Source: Escherichia phage vB-Eco-KMB41. Taken from it: 41,822 bases of DNA. The notes under the pieces are model-generated. The model was not told where the DNA came from and did not search any database. It saw only the letters and a program-made list of their open reading frames with translations. The position numbers and the translations under genes were made by a program. The stretch lies in sequence record OR539216.1; one strand, given 5' to 3'. This document shows positions 62 to 37,799 of this stretch, piece by piece. Positions within the stretch are counted from its first letter, which is position 1. Every line of letters starts with the position of its first letter.

Positions 62-81
62 AATAGCACGAATTGCTAAAA
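62..81 (+). promoter_or_regulatory. Palindromic box site 1 (AATAGCACGAATTGCTAAAA; core TAGCA-N5-TGCTA)
   Basis: Perfect 5-bp inverted repeat with 5-bp spacer; about 22 bp downstream lies TATTAT, then a GC hairpin, SD and ATG of 153..401. The stop codon of the wrap-around ORF (64..66) overlaps the box. Confidence 0.5.
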
Positions 82-3651: not shown

Positions 3652-3683
3652 AAGGAGCCGCTTTTTAAGCGGCCCTTTTTTTT
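3652..3683. terminator. Terminator hairpin (GCCGCTT-loop-AAGCGGC) flanked by A- and T-runs
   Basis: Stem-loop with T9 on plus side and T-rich tract on minus side; lies between two minus-strand genes. Confidence 0.6.
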
Positions 3684-3783
3684 AGAGTACCATCGACACG
3701 CCGAAACCGATTAAAGCCCACAGCGCGGCGCTGGCTGCGATTACGCCCCATATAACGTATTTACTTCCGCGTAAGTCAGTCAT
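3682..3783 (-). CDS. small hydrophobic peptide (33 aa, single predicted TM helix)
   Basis: Unlisted small ORF MTDLRGSKYVIWGVIAASAALWALIGFGVSMVL; its ATG overlaps the TGA of 3780..4172 (ATGA coupling) and it ends at the terminator. Confidence 0.35.
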   Translation of the reverse strand: MTDLRGSKYVIWGVIAASAALWALIGFGVSMVL

Positions 3784-4172
3784 GATATTTTCCCCTCTCT
3801 TTTGAATTTACCCAGGCGCCCGCGAATGGATGCCTTGCTCTTGTTCAACCACTGCCCGACCTGCTCGTGGGTCAGGTCTGCCCGCGTTACCTCATGAAGC
3901 CCGGTAGCCTGAGCGATATCAAGAACGTCGTCCGGCGTCAGTTCATCCACCCAGAAGCGGATCAGCTTCTTGTCCTCGTCAGTGGTCCACCAGCTATAGG
4001 TCCGGCGGTGAGCCAGTGAAACGCCCAGCTTGGACGCTCGGACTTGCATCTGGCGGAAGTTACGCCCGATCAGCTTCGCCAGGTCATGCGCTGGCATCGT
4101 CCCCGCCAGCTTCTCCAGTTCTAAATCTTCCTGCCCGGTCCATCCGATCCGGGTTGCGTTCTTTTTAGCCAC
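3780..4172 (-). CDS. hypothetical protein (130 aa)
   Basis: ORF with GTG start preceded by AAGGAGG SD; no recognisable motif. Confidence 0.65.
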   Translation of the reverse strand: MAKKNATRIGWTGQEDLELEKLAGTMPAHDLAKLIGRNFRQMQVRASKLGVSLAHRRTYSWWTTDEDKKLIRFWVDELTPDDVLDIAQATGLHEVTRADLTHEQVGQWLNKSKASIRGRLGKFKREGKIS

Positions 4173-4443
4173 GTTTGCCTCCTTTGAGGTGCTTCCGGTT
4201 TTTGGTGTCGGCGATCGCGTTCTTGAGATCGTTCTTTCCGCCTTTGGTCCCCGGAACGACGCGCCAGTGATGCGGGTCCGGGTTGTTCAGGTACATCTCG
4301 CCGTCCGGCGTCTCGATCGATATGTCCGCGATCGCCTCCTTGCCGAACACGCGGGAGACTGCGCTGATCATGCCGTCCAGTTCGGCGGCTTGCGCCGCCT
4401 CCCATAACTCCCGGCGCGTTGCCTTAATCGGCCCCGTAGCCAT
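4165..4443 (-). CDS. hypothetical protein (92 aa)
   Basis: ORF in co-directional array with short overlaps; basic C-terminus. Confidence 0.6.
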   Translation of the reverse strand: MATGPIKATRRELWEAAQAAELDGMISAVSRVFGKEAIADISIETPDGEMYLNNPDPHHWRVVPGTKGGKNDLKNAIADTKNRKHLKGGKRG

Positions 4444-4651
4444 AAGCCCCCCGGATAAGCTCGCGGGCGTCGCTCTCTGCCTGAGCCGCTTCGCGCTTTA
4501 AAGCTGCTGTAGCGTGAGGCCCTGCCGCGTACATCTTGAGACGGTTGCGGAGGATCATCGCCACCTCGATCAGAATGTGCGCCTGTTTGAGTAACATCCA
4601 GTTAATCACGACCGCTTTATTTGTTTTGGTCTGAATCAGTGCCTTTTCCAT
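4424..4651 (-). CDS. hypothetical protein (75 aa)
   Basis: ORF with AAGGAG SD 6 nt upstream of ATG. Confidence 0.55.
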   Translation of the reverse strand: MEKALIQTKTNKAVVINWMLLKQAHILIEVAMILRNRLKMYAAGPHATAALKREAAQAESDARELIRGAYGYGAD

Positions 4652-4652
4652 C

Positions 4653-4976
4653 TTAAGCTCCTTTGCTTTCCAGTACGTCGATCACTTTGGTGTAGAAAAC
4701 TTCTTTCGCGCTGAGGGCGGTCAGGCACTCCTCGCGGGTCCGCTTCTTCTCAATACACCAGTAGCAACGGCACAAAGCGGCGCGGAAATAATCCAGTTGC
4801 GGGTCGCTCTTATAATGCGCCTCCAGCTTCTGATTAAGCTCGGCCTCCATCATGGCCTTAAGACCTTTCAGTGACGCCTTACTGGTGCGGATCAGGGTGG
4901 CGTATTTGTGGGCGAAGGCGCGGACCTCTTTCGCTTCCGCCGGGGTGTATTTGATTGTGTTCGGTACTGTAGCCAT
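4653..4976 (-). CDS. hypothetical protein (107 aa)
   Basis: Start set at MATVPN (GAGGA SD upstream); the longer ORF form to 5039 would run through the promoter-like element. Confidence 0.65.
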   Translation of the reverse strand: MATVPNTIKYTPAEAKEVRAFAHKYATLIRTSKASLKGLKAMMEAELNQKLEAHYKSDPQLDYFRAALCRCYWCIEKKRTREECLTALSAKEVFYTKVIDVLESKGA

Positions 4977-5031
4977 TTCGTTGTCCTCGTGTTGGTGTGA
5001 AAAGATAATAACAAAGGATAAGTGAAAGCGC

Positions 5032-5050
5032 TTTAGCAAAAAGTGCTATT
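5032..5050 (-). promoter_or_regulatory. Palindromic box site 2 (TAGCA-AAAAG-TGCTA)
   Basis: Same oriented box, followed about 22 bp downstream (minus sense) by TATTAT, then SD and ATG of 4653..4976. Confidence 0.45.
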
Positions 5051-5054
5051 TGAT

Positions 5055-5076
5055 AAAAAGGCCCCGGAGGGCCTTG
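5055..5076 (-). terminator. Rho-independent terminator (minus sense: GGCCC-TCCG-GGGCC + TTTTT)
   Basis: GC hairpin followed by T5 on the minus strand, right after the stop of 5079..5819. Confidence 0.6.
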
Positions 5077-5078
5077 TG

Positions 5079-5819
5079 TCAGAATGGGGAGTTTTCGATG
5101 AATACCGCGACGGCGAAGCCTTCGGGAGTGGCGGAGCGGATGTTCTTCGTTCGTGTGCTGGATCCTCCCAGCTTCGACCAGCCCGGATTATCCTTCACCG
5201 CCGGGACGCTCTGCGCTGCTGGCATACGGAAGCCGCCACCGCACCAGATCCCCGTCTGCTTCGGGTAAGCATCGCGCGGAGGGTAGATCTCCGGGTATAG
5301 CGTATGCTGGTGGTTCTCCGGCAAGTAGCCGCCGAAGTGGTAAGGGTGGAACCAGTGATCGCAAGGTCGCCACATCGTCGAGAGCCGGGAGATCTTCGGA
5401 TTCTCCAGCATCCAGGGGACCGGGTTCCGGTCCTCATAGTCGCCCTTTTCGTACCCGGCGAACATTGCCACCTGCTCCACCATGCGGGCCAGGTTAACGG
5501 CCTTCTGTTGGAAGCGCGGATCCTTCTTGCGCTTCGCTTCCCACCATCGCGCCCCGGTACAAGTAAGATCCGTACACTCGGCGAAGGATGCAACGAAGAT
5601 CACGCCGGGGCCTACCTCGTCGGCAATGCGAAGCGCTTCCGCTTCCGTGTTCTCTGCGTCGAACATCCGGCCCACACGGATCAGGTTCGGCTCGTTCGGG
5701 TCTGGGTGGATCCCTGGCTCGTGCTGCCCGTCATACATCCAGCATTCGACGCCAGCCTCCAGCCACTTGTCCACCATGATCCGGGTCAGGTTAAAAAGGA
5801 AAATTGCCTTATGCTTCAC
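5079..5819 (-). CDS. hypothetical protein (246 aa), possible nucleic-acid-modifying enzyme
   Basis: Long well-behaved ORF upstream of the terminator; contains ECTDLTC and ENPK stretches but no canonical C5-methyltransferase motif I, so function is left open. Confidence 0.7.
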   Translation of the reverse strand: MKHKAIFLFNLTRIMVDKWLEAGVECWMYDGQHEPGIHPDPNEPNLIRVGRMFDAENTEAEALRIADEVGPGVIFVASFAECTDLTCTGARWWEAKRKKDPRFQQKAVNLARMVEQVAMFAGYEKGDYEDRNPVPWMLENPKISRLSTMWRPCDHWFHPYHFGGYLPENHQHTLYPEIYPPRDAYPKQTGIWCGGGFRMPAAQSVPAVKDNPGWSKLGGSSTRTKNIRSATPEGFAVAVFIENSPF

Positions 5820-6045
5820 GGTTCAGATCCTTCTCGTATTCGTCGGCGTCACGCTTGATCAGCGCGTCCCACTGGTCCATATGGACCGGGTTAAAATCCT
5901 GCTCAAAAGAGAGATCGAGATCCCCGGCGAACAGGAGGCCCTCGGCCTCCGTGTCCACGAGGCCCCGGCGTAGTAGCTCGGCGGCGACCTTCTCCTGGAA
6001 GATGGCCCAGCGGCTATTAGTGTGACCGTCGTTATACTTCATCAC
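5809..6045 (-). CDS. hypothetical acidic protein (78 aa)
   Basis: ORF overlapping both neighbours by a few nt. Confidence 0.55.
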   Translation of the reverse strand: MMKYNDGHTNSRWAIFQEKVAAELLRRGLVDTEAEGLLFAGDLDLSFEQDFNPVHMDQWDALIKRDADEYEKDLNREA

Positions 6046-6626
6046 TAAATCCTCGCTGGCATGATGATCAGCGTTGCGTTGCCGTCCGGCGTTTCGAAGT
6101 CCACGCGGATCGGGTTGGTGTTGCCGTTAAAGCTGAGTTTCGCGAACGGCTTCTTAATGCCGAACTTTTTCCCCAGCTTCTCGATCATTCCGAGGTAAGG
6201 GGTCGCGACGCCGATCACTTCGACGGCCTTCGAGTTCTGGCGGGCCTCGTTCAGCAGACGATCAACGTCGGGATAGTTGGCGTCCACAATGTCCACGGTC
6301 CCCACGGCTACGCGGGCTTTCTTGTGGTCAACGTCGGCGAGGTCCTTCGGCTTGTCTGCCGGAATGTCCAGCCAGTACACGATCCCCGCCTCGGTGTCGA
6401 TCACGGCGGAATAGATCCGCCCAGTCGGTGGCGCGGAGATGTTCAGGATAATCCCCTCCGCTGGAGCCTCGACCAGCTTATGGTCGCTTTCGAGGCAAAC
6501 ATGACCGTTAGACGTGCGGATCCGGCTACCGATGAAGTGGATCGCGTTCAGGTAGTAGCGGACCTCGTTCTGGGCCTTCGTCAGTTGGTGAGCGCGTAAG
6601 GCGCTTACAGGTGCATAAATAATCAT
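6045..6626 (-). CDS. hypothetical protein (193 aa)
   Basis: ORF in replication-associated array; no recognisable motif. Confidence 0.65.
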   Translation of the reverse strand: MIIYAPVSALRAHQLTKAQNEVRYYLNAIHFIGSRIRTSNGHVCLESDHKLVEAPAEGIILNISAPPTGRIYSAVIDTEAGIVYWLDIPADKPKDLADVDHKKARVAVGTVDIVDANYPDVDRLLNEARQNSKAVEVIGVATPYLGMIEKLGKKFGIKKPFAKLSFNGNTNPIRVDFETPDGNATLIIMPARI

Positions 6627-6640
6627 CTCTGGGTCCTCTG

Positions 6641-7282
6641 TTAAATCATGCTTTTGCCGTCGAACATCATTTCCGCCTGGGTCAGATATTCAGTCTTGAT
6701 CGCGCCGCGCTTCTTCGGCTTGATAACGAACATCACAGACGGCTTGCTGTTCTTCTTGCCCGCGACTCCGGTCCCGGCCTTCACGAACGCCACGCGCCCG
6801 GAGTTCTCGCCGTCGCTGGTGATGTGAATAACCAGGCTTGCCGCGTCCAGTGCCTTTTTGAACCACGCCGTAGAGGCGTCGGAGTTCAGGAGAAACACGG
6901 TCGTAACGTCGCGATCCTTCGCTTGCTGGATGGCCTTCACGATCCACGGAAGCGGCTCGGCGTATGGCGGATTACACCAGGCCAGACCGCCCTCGGCTCC
7001 CCACTCCACGCCATCCTTGAGGGCGTCCGTTTTCTCGTCCAGGTAGACGTCACAGAGGGCGTTTTCCTTCTCCGCCGCCACGTCGATCCCGAACTGCCCG
7101 AAGCGCTTCGCGGCCCAGTCGAACAGCCAGCGCGGCGTCTGCCACTTCTGGCGGATAGCGTCCGGCGTGGTGGTCTTGTTGAAGCGGCGACCGCTAACAG
7201 TGGTCACGTCTGCCGCTGCGCGTTCCGCCTCGGTCATGCCGTCCACATGGTCGATCGTGCTGGTGTCTTTCTCGTCTTTCAT
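6641..7282 (-). CDS. DNA N6-adenine methyltransferase (phage Dam type)
   Basis: Contains the catalytic (N/D)PPY motif in context WCNPPYAEP, characteristic of amino-methyltransferases. Confidence 0.8.
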   Translation of the reverse strand: MKDEKDTSTIDHVDGMTEAERAAADVTTVSGRRFNKTTTPDAIRQKWQTPRWLFDWAAKRFGQFGIDVAAEKENALCDVYLDEKTDALKDGVEWGAEGGLAWCNPPYAEPLPWIVKAIQQAKDRDVTTVFLLNSDASTAWFKKALDAASLVIHITSDGENSGRVAFVKAGTGVAGKKNSKPSVMFVIKPKKRGAIKTEYLTQAEMMFDGKSMI

Positions 7283-7338
7283 CTGCTGCCCTTCTGTTGT
7301 TGGTGGTTATTAAAGATAATTGATTAACTGTTTAGTGT

Positions 7339-7357
7339 TTTAACAAAAAGTGCTATT
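7339..7357 (-). promoter_or_regulatory. Palindromic box site 3 (TAACA-AAAAG-TGCTA, one mismatch)
   Basis: Degenerate copy of the oriented box upstream of the methylase gene. Confidence 0.35.
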
Positions 7358-7412
7358 TATGGTTTCTCACGTTTCCCTGTAGCAACATTAGCGCCGCTGG
7401 TATCGACGCTTT

Positions 7413-7438
7413 AGCCCCCGCGCCGGGGCTTTTTTTTT
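7413..7438 (+). terminator. Plus-sense intrinsic terminator-like hairpin (AGCCCC-loop-GGGGCT + T8) inside a minus-strand operon
   Basis: 6-bp GC stem followed by T8 on the plus strand only; abuts the primase stop codon. Confidence 0.45.
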
Positions 7439-8255
7439 ACCCGAACGCGCCAGCCAGATCTCCCCCTATGCAAGCCCTCCCCGTCCTGTCGTAGCCGTAC
7501 AGGAAAACCTCGTCCGGGTCAGTGTAAACGAACCGGATCTCCCGATCGCCGTCGTAGATCGCCGAAGCCTGGACGGCGTTCATAGGCCGGAACGTCAGCC
7601 AGACCTCCGCCTCCCCTCGCGCCGCCACGTTCACGGCATGAGCCGGATCCGCCACGAGATACACCGGAGCGTCCGGCGCTGGGTGGATCAGTCCGACCGC
7701 GCCCCACGTTGGCCCGCCAGCGGCAAACACCACGGACCTGTCGGAGCCGATCTTCGCAACGTTGCACCACGGCCCCAGGGATCCCCCCAGTGGACGAGCG
7801 CATGGAACATACAGGAAGCCGTCCCGCATCGCGCCTTTAGCCATGACTCGCTCGACGTCCTCCGGGGAGAGTTCCCAGTCCTGCGCGGGCTTGTCCTGCT
7901 GCCGGGCATACTTGCGGGCCTCTTTGACGATCGTCTCCCGCTTCTCCGGGGTGAGTCCGCCTATCCAGTCGCCCAGGTCGTTGATCGCCTCGTTGAACGG
8001 CTGCGATCGGCTGGTCATAAACCAAAACATGCCATCACGAGCGCCACCGCACGAGCCGGAACAGTACCCGAAGCCCTCGGCCTTTTTCGTCTGCTGCTTA
8101 TGGCCCCAGCGAAAGCGATCGGTCCCGCCACAGATCGGGCATGGCTGGTGATTGCCGTTAAACGCCTTGCGGTCCCATCCACAGAGATCGAGGAGCGCCT
8201 GTTCCCATTTGCCGGGCATCGCCGCGAGAACGTCCTCTTTTTTATAAATTGCCAT
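7437..8255 (-). CDS. DNA primase (zinc-binding)
   Basis: N-terminal CPICGG...DRFRW zinc-ribbon typical of phage/plasmid primases plus a second Cys cluster; divergent from the helicase gene. Confidence 0.7.
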   Translation of the reverse strand: MAIYKKEDVLAAMPGKWEQALLDLCGWDRKAFNGNHQPCPICGGTDRFRWGHKQQTKKAEGFGYCSGSCGGARDGMFWFMTSRSQPFNEAINDLGDWIGGLTPEKRETIVKEARKYARQQDKPAQDWELSPEDVERVMAKGAMRDGFLYVPCARPLGGSLGPWCNVAKIGSDRSVVFAAGGPTWGAVGLIHPAPDAPVYLVADPAHAVNVAARGEAEVWLTFRPMNAVQASAIYDGDREIRFVYTDPDEVFLYGYDRTGRACIGGDLAGAFG

Positions 8256-13982: not shown

Positions 13983-14010
13983 GAAGGGGCCAATTAAGGC
14001 CCCTTTTTTT
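13983..14010. terminator. Bidirectional rho-independent terminator (GGGGCC-AATTAA-GGCCCC + T7)
   Basis: Perfect GC stem with T-run on plus side and T-rich tract on minus side, between the convergent HTH and tailspike genes. Confidence 0.8.
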
Positions 14011-21272: not shown

Positions 21273-21715
21273 TTGGTCCTCTCCTCAAAAAAATTACTTC
21301 CGCCATGTTACCGTCCGCCAATTGTACAAGCTGCGGGGCGCTTTCAACAAATCCCACCTTTCGGACCACGTTCCGCGCGTGTCGGTGTGACATGAGAACA
21401 GGGACGCGGATCGCATAATGGCCCCAGTGAGCCAGAAAAGCCTCGCAAGCCTCGCGTGACCGTCTGCGTCTGGGTGGATCCATCGCCATATGACCATCGA
21501 TCCCGCCTTCGTCGTTTGCCATGATGGCGAACACGCAACGCCATATGACCATCGATCCCGCCTTCGTCGTTTGCCATGATGGCGAACACGCAACATTTTT
21601 CCCACAGAAAATATTTTGCCTCGACGTGGCGAGGCCATTCCGGCAAGCCCCAGGCGTGGAGGAGGTCCACGCCGGAGTCTGGCACGAGTTCGATCATCTC
21701 TCCATAGTCCATCAT
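21256..21715 (-). pseudogene. virion gene at the P22 gene-14 position, frameshifted by an exact 55-bp tandem duplication
   Basis: Three overlapping minus-strand ORFs in different frames; peptide CVFAIMANDEGGIDGHMA is encoded twice, once per repeat copy; removing one copy would give a single ~134-aa ORF. Confidence 0.55.
21484..21593. repeat. Exact tandem direct repeat, 2 x 55 bp (GCCATATGACCATCGATCCCGCCTTCGTCGTTTGCCATGATGGCGAACACGCAAC)
   Basis: Two identical adjacent copies read directly in the sequence; 55 is not a multiple of 3. Confidence 0.85.
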
Positions 21716-28052: not shown

Positions 28053-28071
28053 TTTAGCAATTCGTGCTCTT
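28053..28071 (-). promoter_or_regulatory. Palindromic box site 4 (TAGCA-ATTCG-TGCTC, one mismatch)
   Basis: Oriented box followed about 22 bp downstream (minus sense) by TATAGT and a GGCGGGG-loop-CCCCGCC hairpin, upstream of 27502..27978; overlaps the stop codon of 28054..28359. Confidence 0.5.
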
Positions 28072-36120: not shown

Positions 36121-36139
36121 TTTAGCAATTCGTGCTATT
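36121..36139 (-). promoter_or_regulatory. Palindromic box site 5 (TAGCA-ATTCG-TGCTA, perfect)
   Basis: Followed about 22 bp downstream (minus sense) by TATAGT, then GGCGGGA-loop-TCCCGCC hairpin, SD and ATG at 36048; overlaps the stop codon of 36135..36416. Confidence 0.55.
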
Positions 36140-37780: not shown

Positions 37781-37799
37781 TTTAGCAATTCGTGCTATT
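37781..37799 (-). promoter_or_regulatory. Palindromic box site 6 (TAGCA-ATTCG-TGCTA, perfect)
   Basis: Followed about 22 bp downstream (minus sense) by TAATAT, then GGGCG-loop-CGCCC hairpin and the ATG at about 37707. Confidence 0.55.

Follow-up and report, generated by a model that had tools for sequence, protein, structure and literature searches.

A conserved one-way terminator hairpin set against the primase operon of Murrayvirus-like phages, and the small antisense RNA that may end at it

The gap and its neighbours

Why should a terminator in a phage genome face against every gene around it? The question is raised by a short intergenic region of Escherichia phage vB-Eco-KMB41. The DNA analysed (41.8 kb; hereafter the window, in whose coordinates all positions are given) is a near-complete Murrayvirus-like phage genome with about 90% DNA identity to the coliphages IME_EC2, sortsyn and ST231 and to Salmonella phage Lumpael. 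In the annotation of IME_EC2 a leftward gene block running from about 8.25 to 2.8 kb contains the primase, a Dam methyltransferase, RusA, a second methyltransferase, small ORFs and a Hoc-like protein, and the helicase operon diverges rightward from the primase block. The genes from about 2.8 to 8.25 kb in that annotation are all on the same strand, as the initial annotation of the present DNA, which placed every surrounding gene on the minus strand, had it. Open reading frames and Pfam matches likewise bear out its 154-nt non-coding gap (7283-7436) between the Dam methylase and primase genes, and a pattern search finds at 7341-7355 the palindromic box that it assigned to the gap. The flanking features are:

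7437..8255, minus strand: primase-type gene, 272 amino acids, with a PF08273 zinc ribbon (primase-helicase); the terminator abuts its stop codon
6641..7282, minus strand: Dam DNA adenine methyltransferase gene (PF05869, E=1.7e-45)
7295-7289 and 7282-7280, minus strand: start signals of the Dam gene, respectively SD AGAAGGG and ATG

A scan for tRNA and tmRNA found none. Elsewhere in the window, a 55-bp tandem duplication (21481-21590, 98%) whose length is not a multiple of three lies inside a gp30-like gene, and the overlap there of the minus-strand ORFs 21294..21638 and 21344..21715 suggests either a frameshifted or split gene or an assembly artefact.

A hairpin with its U-tract on one side

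The two elements of the terminator lie at the primase end of the gap:

7413..7430, plus strand: terminator hairpin hp1, arms AGCCCC (7413-7418) and GGGGCT (7425-7430), loop CGCGCC
7431..7438, plus strand: U-tract, T8 after the stem (T9 with T7430), overlapping TTA, the complement of the primase stop codon (7437-7439)

Reading of the sequence and a terminator scan both give hp1 a stem of six pairs, five of them G-C, and a loop of six, which falls within the limits for intrinsic terminators (a GC-rich stem of at least 5 bp and a loop of 3-8 nt), and U8 follows directly 3′ of the stem as it does in Rho-independent terminators. On its own hp1 contributes -11.1 kcal/mol. The T9 run is the longest homopolymer in the 41.8 kb, where the iid expectation for runs of nine or more is 0.06. 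On the minus strand A9 stands on the 5′ side of the hairpin and UAAAGCGU on its 3′ side. Hp1 is therefore terminator-like in the plus orientation only, and a test for the U-tract on both strands that marks a bidirectional terminator found just this UAAAGCGU as the minus-strand 3′ flank. The first description of the site, a 6-bp GC stem with T8 that works only when plus-oriented, is thus confirmed for the stem, the T8 and the minus-strand flanks. By its sequence the hairpin with its U-tract is a real intrinsic terminator for plus-strand transcription within a minus-strand operon, and we infer that termination takes place there in vivo. Slippage or frameshifting on the A9 run was considered and ruled out, as the run comes after the stop codon.

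The sole other T-run of eight or more in the window is a T8 after the hairpin GAGCCGCtttttaaGCGGCCC at 3655-3683, between the gp09-like and Hoc-like genes; it has the look of a bidirectional terminator whose plus (antisense) direction is the stronger, so hp1 is not the only plus-facing terminator of the minus-strand block. Further left, at 1756-1772, the minus strand carries a terminator-like hairpin with T7 (TGCGCCGGAGTGGCGCG GATTTTTTT), opposed to the plus-strand holin gene that contains it, which may be due to chance or be a further antisense-blocking element.

Conservation in four phage genera

Annotated phages, together with viral, metagenomic and genomic collections, supplied the region following the primase gene in 17 distinct versions from four genera. 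Murrayvirus is represented by the window, IME_EC2, sortsyn, ST231, one IMG/VR contig, Lumpael and sortregn, Sortsnevirus and its allies by Sortsne, IME279, sortkaff, Kc237 and three environmental contigs, and the further genera are Skarprettervirus and Hungariovirus (C130_2, with STP9 and one contig). Primase-based locus searches of the viral, metagenome and genome collections gained few new sequences, so the family is small. The comparison brings in a second hairpin next to hp1:

7390..7410, strand left open: hairpin hp2, AGCGCCG-ctggtat-CGACGCT

Though primase identity to the window falls as low as 52%, the gap is 152-170 nt long in all 17 versions, and its last 50-60 nt, read antisense to primase, consist in every one of them of hp2, hp1 and a run of T7-T9 that leads at once into the stop codon. 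The T-run is always antisense to primase and always touches that codon (17/17). What lies downstream varies (Dam, dUTPase or a band-7 protein), and so does the type of promoter in the gap, which is of the box type in three genera and of a good sigma-70 type, TTGAAA-17-TATGTT, in the Sortsneviruses. The sequence of hp1 varies as well: by lineage its stem is AGCCCC/GGGGCT, GGCCCC/GGGGCC or GCCGC/GCGGC, and pairing is always kept. Across the 13 sequences that can be aligned, each of the 78 stem cells is paired, and the closing pair, G-C in seven and A-U in six, is nowhere broken, with both states in both main genera. Skarpretter, C130_2 and the locus L078 have GCCGC...GCGGC, and the Skarpretter and C130_2 group builds the same two-hairpin layout from unrelated sequence. 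Compensatory change is thus seen both in these 13 fully paired stems and in the unrelated stem of two further genera. About 90 nt of extra non-coding DNA is retained in all four genera.

The more distant primase relatives KLB22 and Ymer are without the gap, and the distantly related primase gene of the T1-like phage Rtp is followed by an ordinary terminator in sense orientation. The reversed orientation is therefore a derived, clade-specific trait. The anatomy of the terminator, its orientation and its conservation with compensatory change are plain in the alignments; that a reversed terminator should be conserved in one clade argues strongly that plus-strand transcripts end here, since an orientation kept in four genera is hard to explain unless such transcripts stop at it.

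A permissive terminator scan yields many chance matches (31 found in 20 kb against 20 expected), and on that ground the arrangement might be taken for a functionless relic or an accident. This is the least probable of the explanations considered: the T-run is the longest homopolymer in the window, the gap length stays within narrow bounds, and orientation and position are kept in four genera with compensatory stem changes.

The second hairpin and the primase-sense strand

The 5′ arm and loop of hp2, TTAGCGCC(C)GCTGGTAT at 7388-7403, are near-invariant in Murray- and Sortsneviruses, the rest of the gap being unalignable between them; in the group on the Skarpretter/C130_2 side TTAGCcagccaGCTAA stands at the hp2 position. 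The motif occurs once in the window, and an exact-pattern scan of IMG/VR for it gave 54 matches, five of them real and the rest chance occurrences in unrelated contexts. A variable stretch separates hp2 from the box:

7361..7387, plus strand: pyrimidine-rich variable spacer from box to hp2, the 5′ body of the shorter candidate plus-strand RNA

This spacer has two unrelated alleles inside Murrayvirus, a window type and a Lumpael type, and is unconserved across genera. In 15 of the 17 sequences, with all four genera represented, hp2 starts with TTAGC (7388-7392 in the window), which is also the pentamer of the box half-site TTAGCA; the match may be coincidental, or may mark a degenerate half-site at which the box-binding factor attaches.

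Hp2 forms on both strands in 13 of 13 sequences. Which strand it favours depends on G.U as against C.A pairs and is mixed (minus in the window, plus in ST231). The two-hairpin segment as a whole is the steadier on the primase-sense strand in 12 of the 13, with -23.0 against -15.4 kcal/mol on the plus strand in the window (U.G vs C.A). These foldings are one ground for supposing that the hairpins act instead in the minus-strand RNA, protecting or processing the 3′ end of primase mRNA or serving as a weak sense terminator, the A-run/T-run then being incidental. On the sense strand of IME279-type phages hp2 is, moreover, followed by UAAUUUUUU, and the sense terminator found directly before the box promoter at 5034 shows that a terminator-promoter module exists in the phage. 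Such a sense-strand element would, however, leave unexplained why T7-9 stands on the antisense side in 17 of 17 versions even as the hairpin varies in sequence. In the Murray-, Skarpretter- and Hungarioviruses the sense strand has no U-tract after either hairpin, hp2 of the IME279-type phages being the only exception among all versions; and an A-run 5′ of a hairpin has, to our knowledge, no stabilising role. Neither the sense-strand reading nor that of chance explains why the T-run is always on the antisense side of a hairpin whose own sequence changes, and we consider the sense-strand reading improbable.

The palindromic box and the Dam promoter

The middle of the gap is occupied by a promoter for the Dam gene:

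7341..7355, minus strand: palindromic box, plus read TAACAAAAAGTGCTA, minus read TAGCACTTTTTGTTA, centred at about -42 from the inferred start
7313..7318, minus strand: Dam promoter -10 TATCTT, 22 nt downstream of the box, with an inferred start near 7306

The box is one mismatch away from TAGCA-N5-TGCTA, of which repeat and pattern searches find six good copies in the window:

64-78, plus strand: box copy
5034-5048, minus strand: box copy
7341-7355, minus strand: box copy, the one in the gap
28055-28069, minus strand: box copy
36123-36137, minus strand: box copy
37783-37797, minus strand: box copy

In IME_EC2 the equivalent positions carry six perfect boxes. When each is read along its gene, all six in the window share one layout, aaaTAGCAC-nnn-TTGCTAaaa, then 22-23 nt, a -10-like hexamer (TATTAT, TATTAT, TATCTT, TATAGT, TATAGT and TAATAT), 25-50 nt, an RBS and ATG; and the copy at 64-78, upstream of plus-strand genes, is oriented opposite to the five in minus-strand operons. 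Since all six are gene-oriented with a -10 at a fixed spacing, the box is the upstream element of a phage promoter class, and the copy in the gap therefore belongs to the minus-strand Dam promoter; the initial annotation, which had named it alongside a possible plus-strand unit, is not supported on this point. Its centre near -42 appears to resemble a class II activator site, and the factor that binds it could be an XRE-family regulator or a host factor. Two other roles were rejected by eye: as an activator site in the plus direction the box has no -10 hexamer at 22-23 nt on that side in any genus, and as a sigma-54 promoter it falls 2 nt short in spacing and reads AG in place of GG. In the gap after primase, Skarpretter and C130_2 have one copy each, and the Sortsnevirus loci examined have none.

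A near-identical box, TTTTAACAAAAAGTGCTATTTA, is found at 10-12 places per genome in T1-like Drexlerviridae. In phage tonijn (locus L090, 268-290) it comes with the same 22 nt and -10, and in Rtp (locus L091, 1566-1585) one copy is reversed and lies between TACAAT and the tail-fibre RBS, which suggests that one regulator is used both as activator and at operators across unrelated phage families. A GC-rich leader hairpin (e.g. GGGCGgcaatgggtCGCCC, GGCGGGGaacggCCCCGCC) follows the -10 by about 10-35 nt at boxes 64, 28055, 36123 and 37783, and there is one in tonijn too; the promoters at 5034 and 7341 have none. Directly upstream of the 5034 promoter is a sense terminator (GGCCCtccgGGGCC plus T5). 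Between the gp11 and gp12 homologues (4652-5078) the window is longer than IME_EC2 by about 325 bp, and in this extra DNA an ORF of 107 aa (4976..4656, minus strand), without a PHROG match, stands behind the 5034 box promoter; with its terminator it looks like a moron-like cassette.

The gap adjoins an AT-rich stretch of about 60 bp (35-37% GC) and lies between replication genes, it is tightly linked to the primase gene across genera, and hp2 is conserved in primary sequence, all of which would suit a signal at the DNA level, part of a replication origin or a loading site for primase or helicase, with the hairpins forming in single-stranded DNA. Yet the sequence shows no iterons and no repeat other than the promoter box, the Dam promoter suffices to explain the AT-rich stretch, and the hairpin with its T-run has the textbook signature of a terminator. 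Nothing here is specific to an origin, and a role of this kind seems very improbable, little better placed than chance.

Where plus-strand transcripts might begin

A terminator needs transcripts to stop. Searches for a promoter to supply them were made in the gap and upstream of it. A consensus scan (9-of-12) found no plus-strand promoter in the gap in any genus, and a more permissive plus-strand sigma-70 weight-matrix scan of the gap peaked at 6.6 in the window, below the median top score of 8.0 for shuffled versions of this stretch. Between the previous plus-oriented terminator (3657-3683) and hp1, that is over 3684-7412, there is no strong conserved plus-strand promoter, so the source of the transcripts must be local; the single good upstream hit, at 4981-5009 in the window, adjoins the window-specific extra ORF. 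The local candidates are:

7315..7320, plus strand: -10-like GATAAT, the best plus-strand promoter candidate, back-to-back with the Dam -10; start at about 7327, RNA of about 110 nt
7351-7359 and 7358-7363, plus strand: alternative weak start signals, TGcTATTTA (box flank) and TATGGT respectively; start at about 7366-7370, RNA of about 68-72 nt

GATAAT is present in seven of seven Murrayviruses, though its full-promoter score is weak (5.6) and it has no good -35. The alternative signals are unconserved, IME_EC2 having TATGGC and Lumpael lacking both. In each of the four genera a -10-like hexamer on the plus strand, with the critical A and T at positions 2 and 6, overlaps the -10 of the gene direction and lies 114-140 nt ahead of the point where the T-run ends:

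Murrayviruses: plus-strand hexamer GATAAT, gene-direction -10 TATCTT or TATCGT
IME279 group: plus-strand hexamer CATAAT, gene-direction -10 TATGTT
Sortsne: plus-strand hexamer TAAAGT, gene-direction -10 TAACTT
Skarpretter: plus-strand hexamer TACACT, gene-direction -10 TATAGT
C130_2 group: plus-strand hexamer TACTAT, gene-direction -10 TATAGT

Overlapping -10-like hexamers are fairly likely to occur by chance in AT-rich DNA. In the window the divergent starts are predicted to be about 21 bp apart. By eye, at least three of the five other box promoters (64, 5034 and 37783) have antisense -10-like hexamers too; no antisense-facing terminator lies behind any of the five, the one at 5034 being sense-oriented, so insulation is no general rule in this phage. 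A small peptide gene in the gap was also considered and rejected, as ATG 7359 would give MVSHVSL-stop, has no SD and is missing in Lumpael.

The short plus-strand transcript originally proposed for this interval is thus upheld at its 3′ end, where the terminator is real and its orientation conserved in four genera, and lacks at its 5′ end a promoter scoring above shuffled sequence. The proposed size of 60-120 nt fits what the sequence offers, the starts near 7327 and 7370 giving RNAs of about 110 and 68 nt.

A functional small RNA?

An RNA ending at hp1 may be the point of the arrangement. A dedicated regulatory sRNA gene would have as its functional product the plus-strand RNA, with its CU-rich 5′ part, hp2, hp1 and U-tail, acting either in cis, like lambda OOP or P22 sar, by pairing with primase-to-Dam read-through mRNA, with RNase III cleavage or transcriptional interference, or in trans as an Hfq-type RNA through the conserved hp2 loop or the CU-rich region. 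Hp2, a short linker, hp1 and U8 do make up the layout of an Hfq-type sRNA, two hairpins and a U-tail being typical of enterobacterial sRNAs. The near-invariance of TTAGCGCC(C)GCTGGTAT over two genera with otherwise unalignable gaps suggests selection beyond a bare terminator, and the extra non-coding DNA kept in the four genera points the same way. There is precedent in lambda pO/oop, a short antisense RNA with its own terminator beside replication genes (PMC3985674).

With Rfam at gathering thresholds, the window and four relatives gave no match; a permissive scan gave sub-threshold hits, all to sRNA families and driven by the 3′ terminator module, the best at 15.8 bits against a cutoff of 49.5. 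E. coli genomes showed no host similarity to the candidate RNA, and a literature search found no transcription study for these genera. The best duplex with 313 translation-start regions, at -39.3 kcal/mol, is within the range of shuffled sequence (-35.6 to -45.2) in what is a low-power test. A conserved single-stranded seed with targets, as expected of an Hfq-type sRNA, was not found, the 5′ region being unconserved even inside Murrayvirus and the duplexes at shuffle level. Nor was the overlap with a coding 3′ end that marks OOP, the overlap with the reading frame being at most 2-3 nt, nor, in Rfam, homology to a described family. The candidate RNA would be fully complementary to any primase-to-Dam read-through transcript, but as it overlaps primase only at the stop codon and even its longest form (start about 7327) falls short of the Dam RBS at 7289-7295, its action could not be exactly like that of oop or sar. 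With no recognisable promoter, and with hp2 in the window folding better on the opposite strand, a dedicated sRNA gene is unlikely, if better placed than the other alternatives.

A more elaborate proposal, somewhat less likely again, is that the gap holds both an undescribed conserved phage sRNA and an early-to-middle switch, in which a primase-proximal antisense RNA with hp2 shares the activator-dependent Dam promoter region. Early on, this RNA would block primase read-through into the middle genes by convergent transcription and RNase III-sensitive pairing; later, a box-binding activator occupying the box (+14 to +28 of the plus-strand unit) would turn the RNA off and the Dam operon on. Such a switch would be functionally parallel to lambda pO/oop, though differently built.

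A proposed block to backward transcription

The explanation we prefer, at about even chances, is a one-way terminator at which backward transcription of local origin ends, right at the stop codon of primase, leaving a small antisense RNA. Polymerases that travel along the plus strand, and so counter to the primase-Dam operon, would be halted by the hairpin and U-tract. The transcripts so stopped would most likely begin inside this AT-rich gap, at the rear of the Dam promoter, where GATAAT (7315-7320) overlaps the Dam -10 TATCTT (7318-7313) as in intrinsically bidirectional bacterial promoters. The predicted product, a plus-strand RNA that codes for no protein, would have its 3′ end at 7436-7438 and measure about 110 nt, or about 70 nt with a start near 7370; both start site and role are deduced from sequence features. 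The main job of the terminator would be insulation, keeping polymerases and antisense RNA out of the early primase gene and its divergent promoter region, and the short RNA complementary to the primase-to-Dam read-through RNA would be a by-product. An oop-like regulatory role for that RNA is possible. Against this preferred reading, a plain insulator leaves the near-invariant 5′ arm and loop of hp2 across two genera unexplained.

Implications

If confirmed, the locus would be either an unannotated non-coding transcription unit or a dedicated insulator against antisense transcription, placed in the early replication region of virulent enterobacterial phages that belong to four genera and include some under consideration for therapy. 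It would also be a clean natural case of backward transcription from a bidirectional promoter being contained by a one-way terminator at a stop codon. Annotation pipelines miss the terminator, and engineering of the gap could unknowingly strip the primase gene of its protection. The box promoter class, with six copies per genome and common to T1-like phages, may be the more useful for understanding gene timing.

Comparison with known systems

In P22, the small antisense RNA sar of the immI region covers the RBS of the downstream gene ant. The present locus shares with it a P22-like podovirus background and, if the candidate RNA is made, a small antisense transcript started between genes of an operon; it differs in that the longest RNA predicted here stops short of the Dam RBS at 7289-7295.

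Intrinsically bidirectional bacterial promoters were reportedly described by Warman et al. in 2021. According to a later account, symmetry of the -10 lets RNA polymerase bind either way, with starts most commonly 18, 10 and 23 bp apart and small variations (PMC12825309). The opposite-strand, overlapping -10-like elements TATCTT and GATAAT resemble such promoters, and the predicted separation of the starts, about 21 bp, falls in the reported range and near the 18 and 23 bp classes. The difference is that the present pair is known from sequence only and is followed, about 110 nt on, by a dedicated one-way terminator, a feature that the described class does not include.

With Rho-independent terminators at large hp1 has in common the GC-rich stem, short loop and U-tract. 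The window has ordinary terminators, among them bidirectional ones at 2796-2815, 3655-3683 and 13984-14010; unlike canonical and bidirectional terminators, hp1 has a U-tail on a single side, the one pointing against all its neighbouring genes. Rtp differs again, its homologous primase gene carrying a sense-oriented terminator instead. The box promoter has the same layout as that of the T1-like phage tonijn.

Lambda pO/oop is the nearest functional precedent. OOP is an antisense RNA acting via RNase III, and pO in addition interferes with convergent transcription from pR (PMC3985674). Here the overlap would be with non-coding read-through RNA only, whereas that of oop is with the coding sequence of cII at its 3′ end; neither sequence nor Rfam comparison shows a likeness, and the promoter is represented by weak candidates only. 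The likeness lies in the proposed arrangement: a short transcript directed against an early operon, a promoter inside that operon and an intrinsic terminator of its own beside the replication genes.
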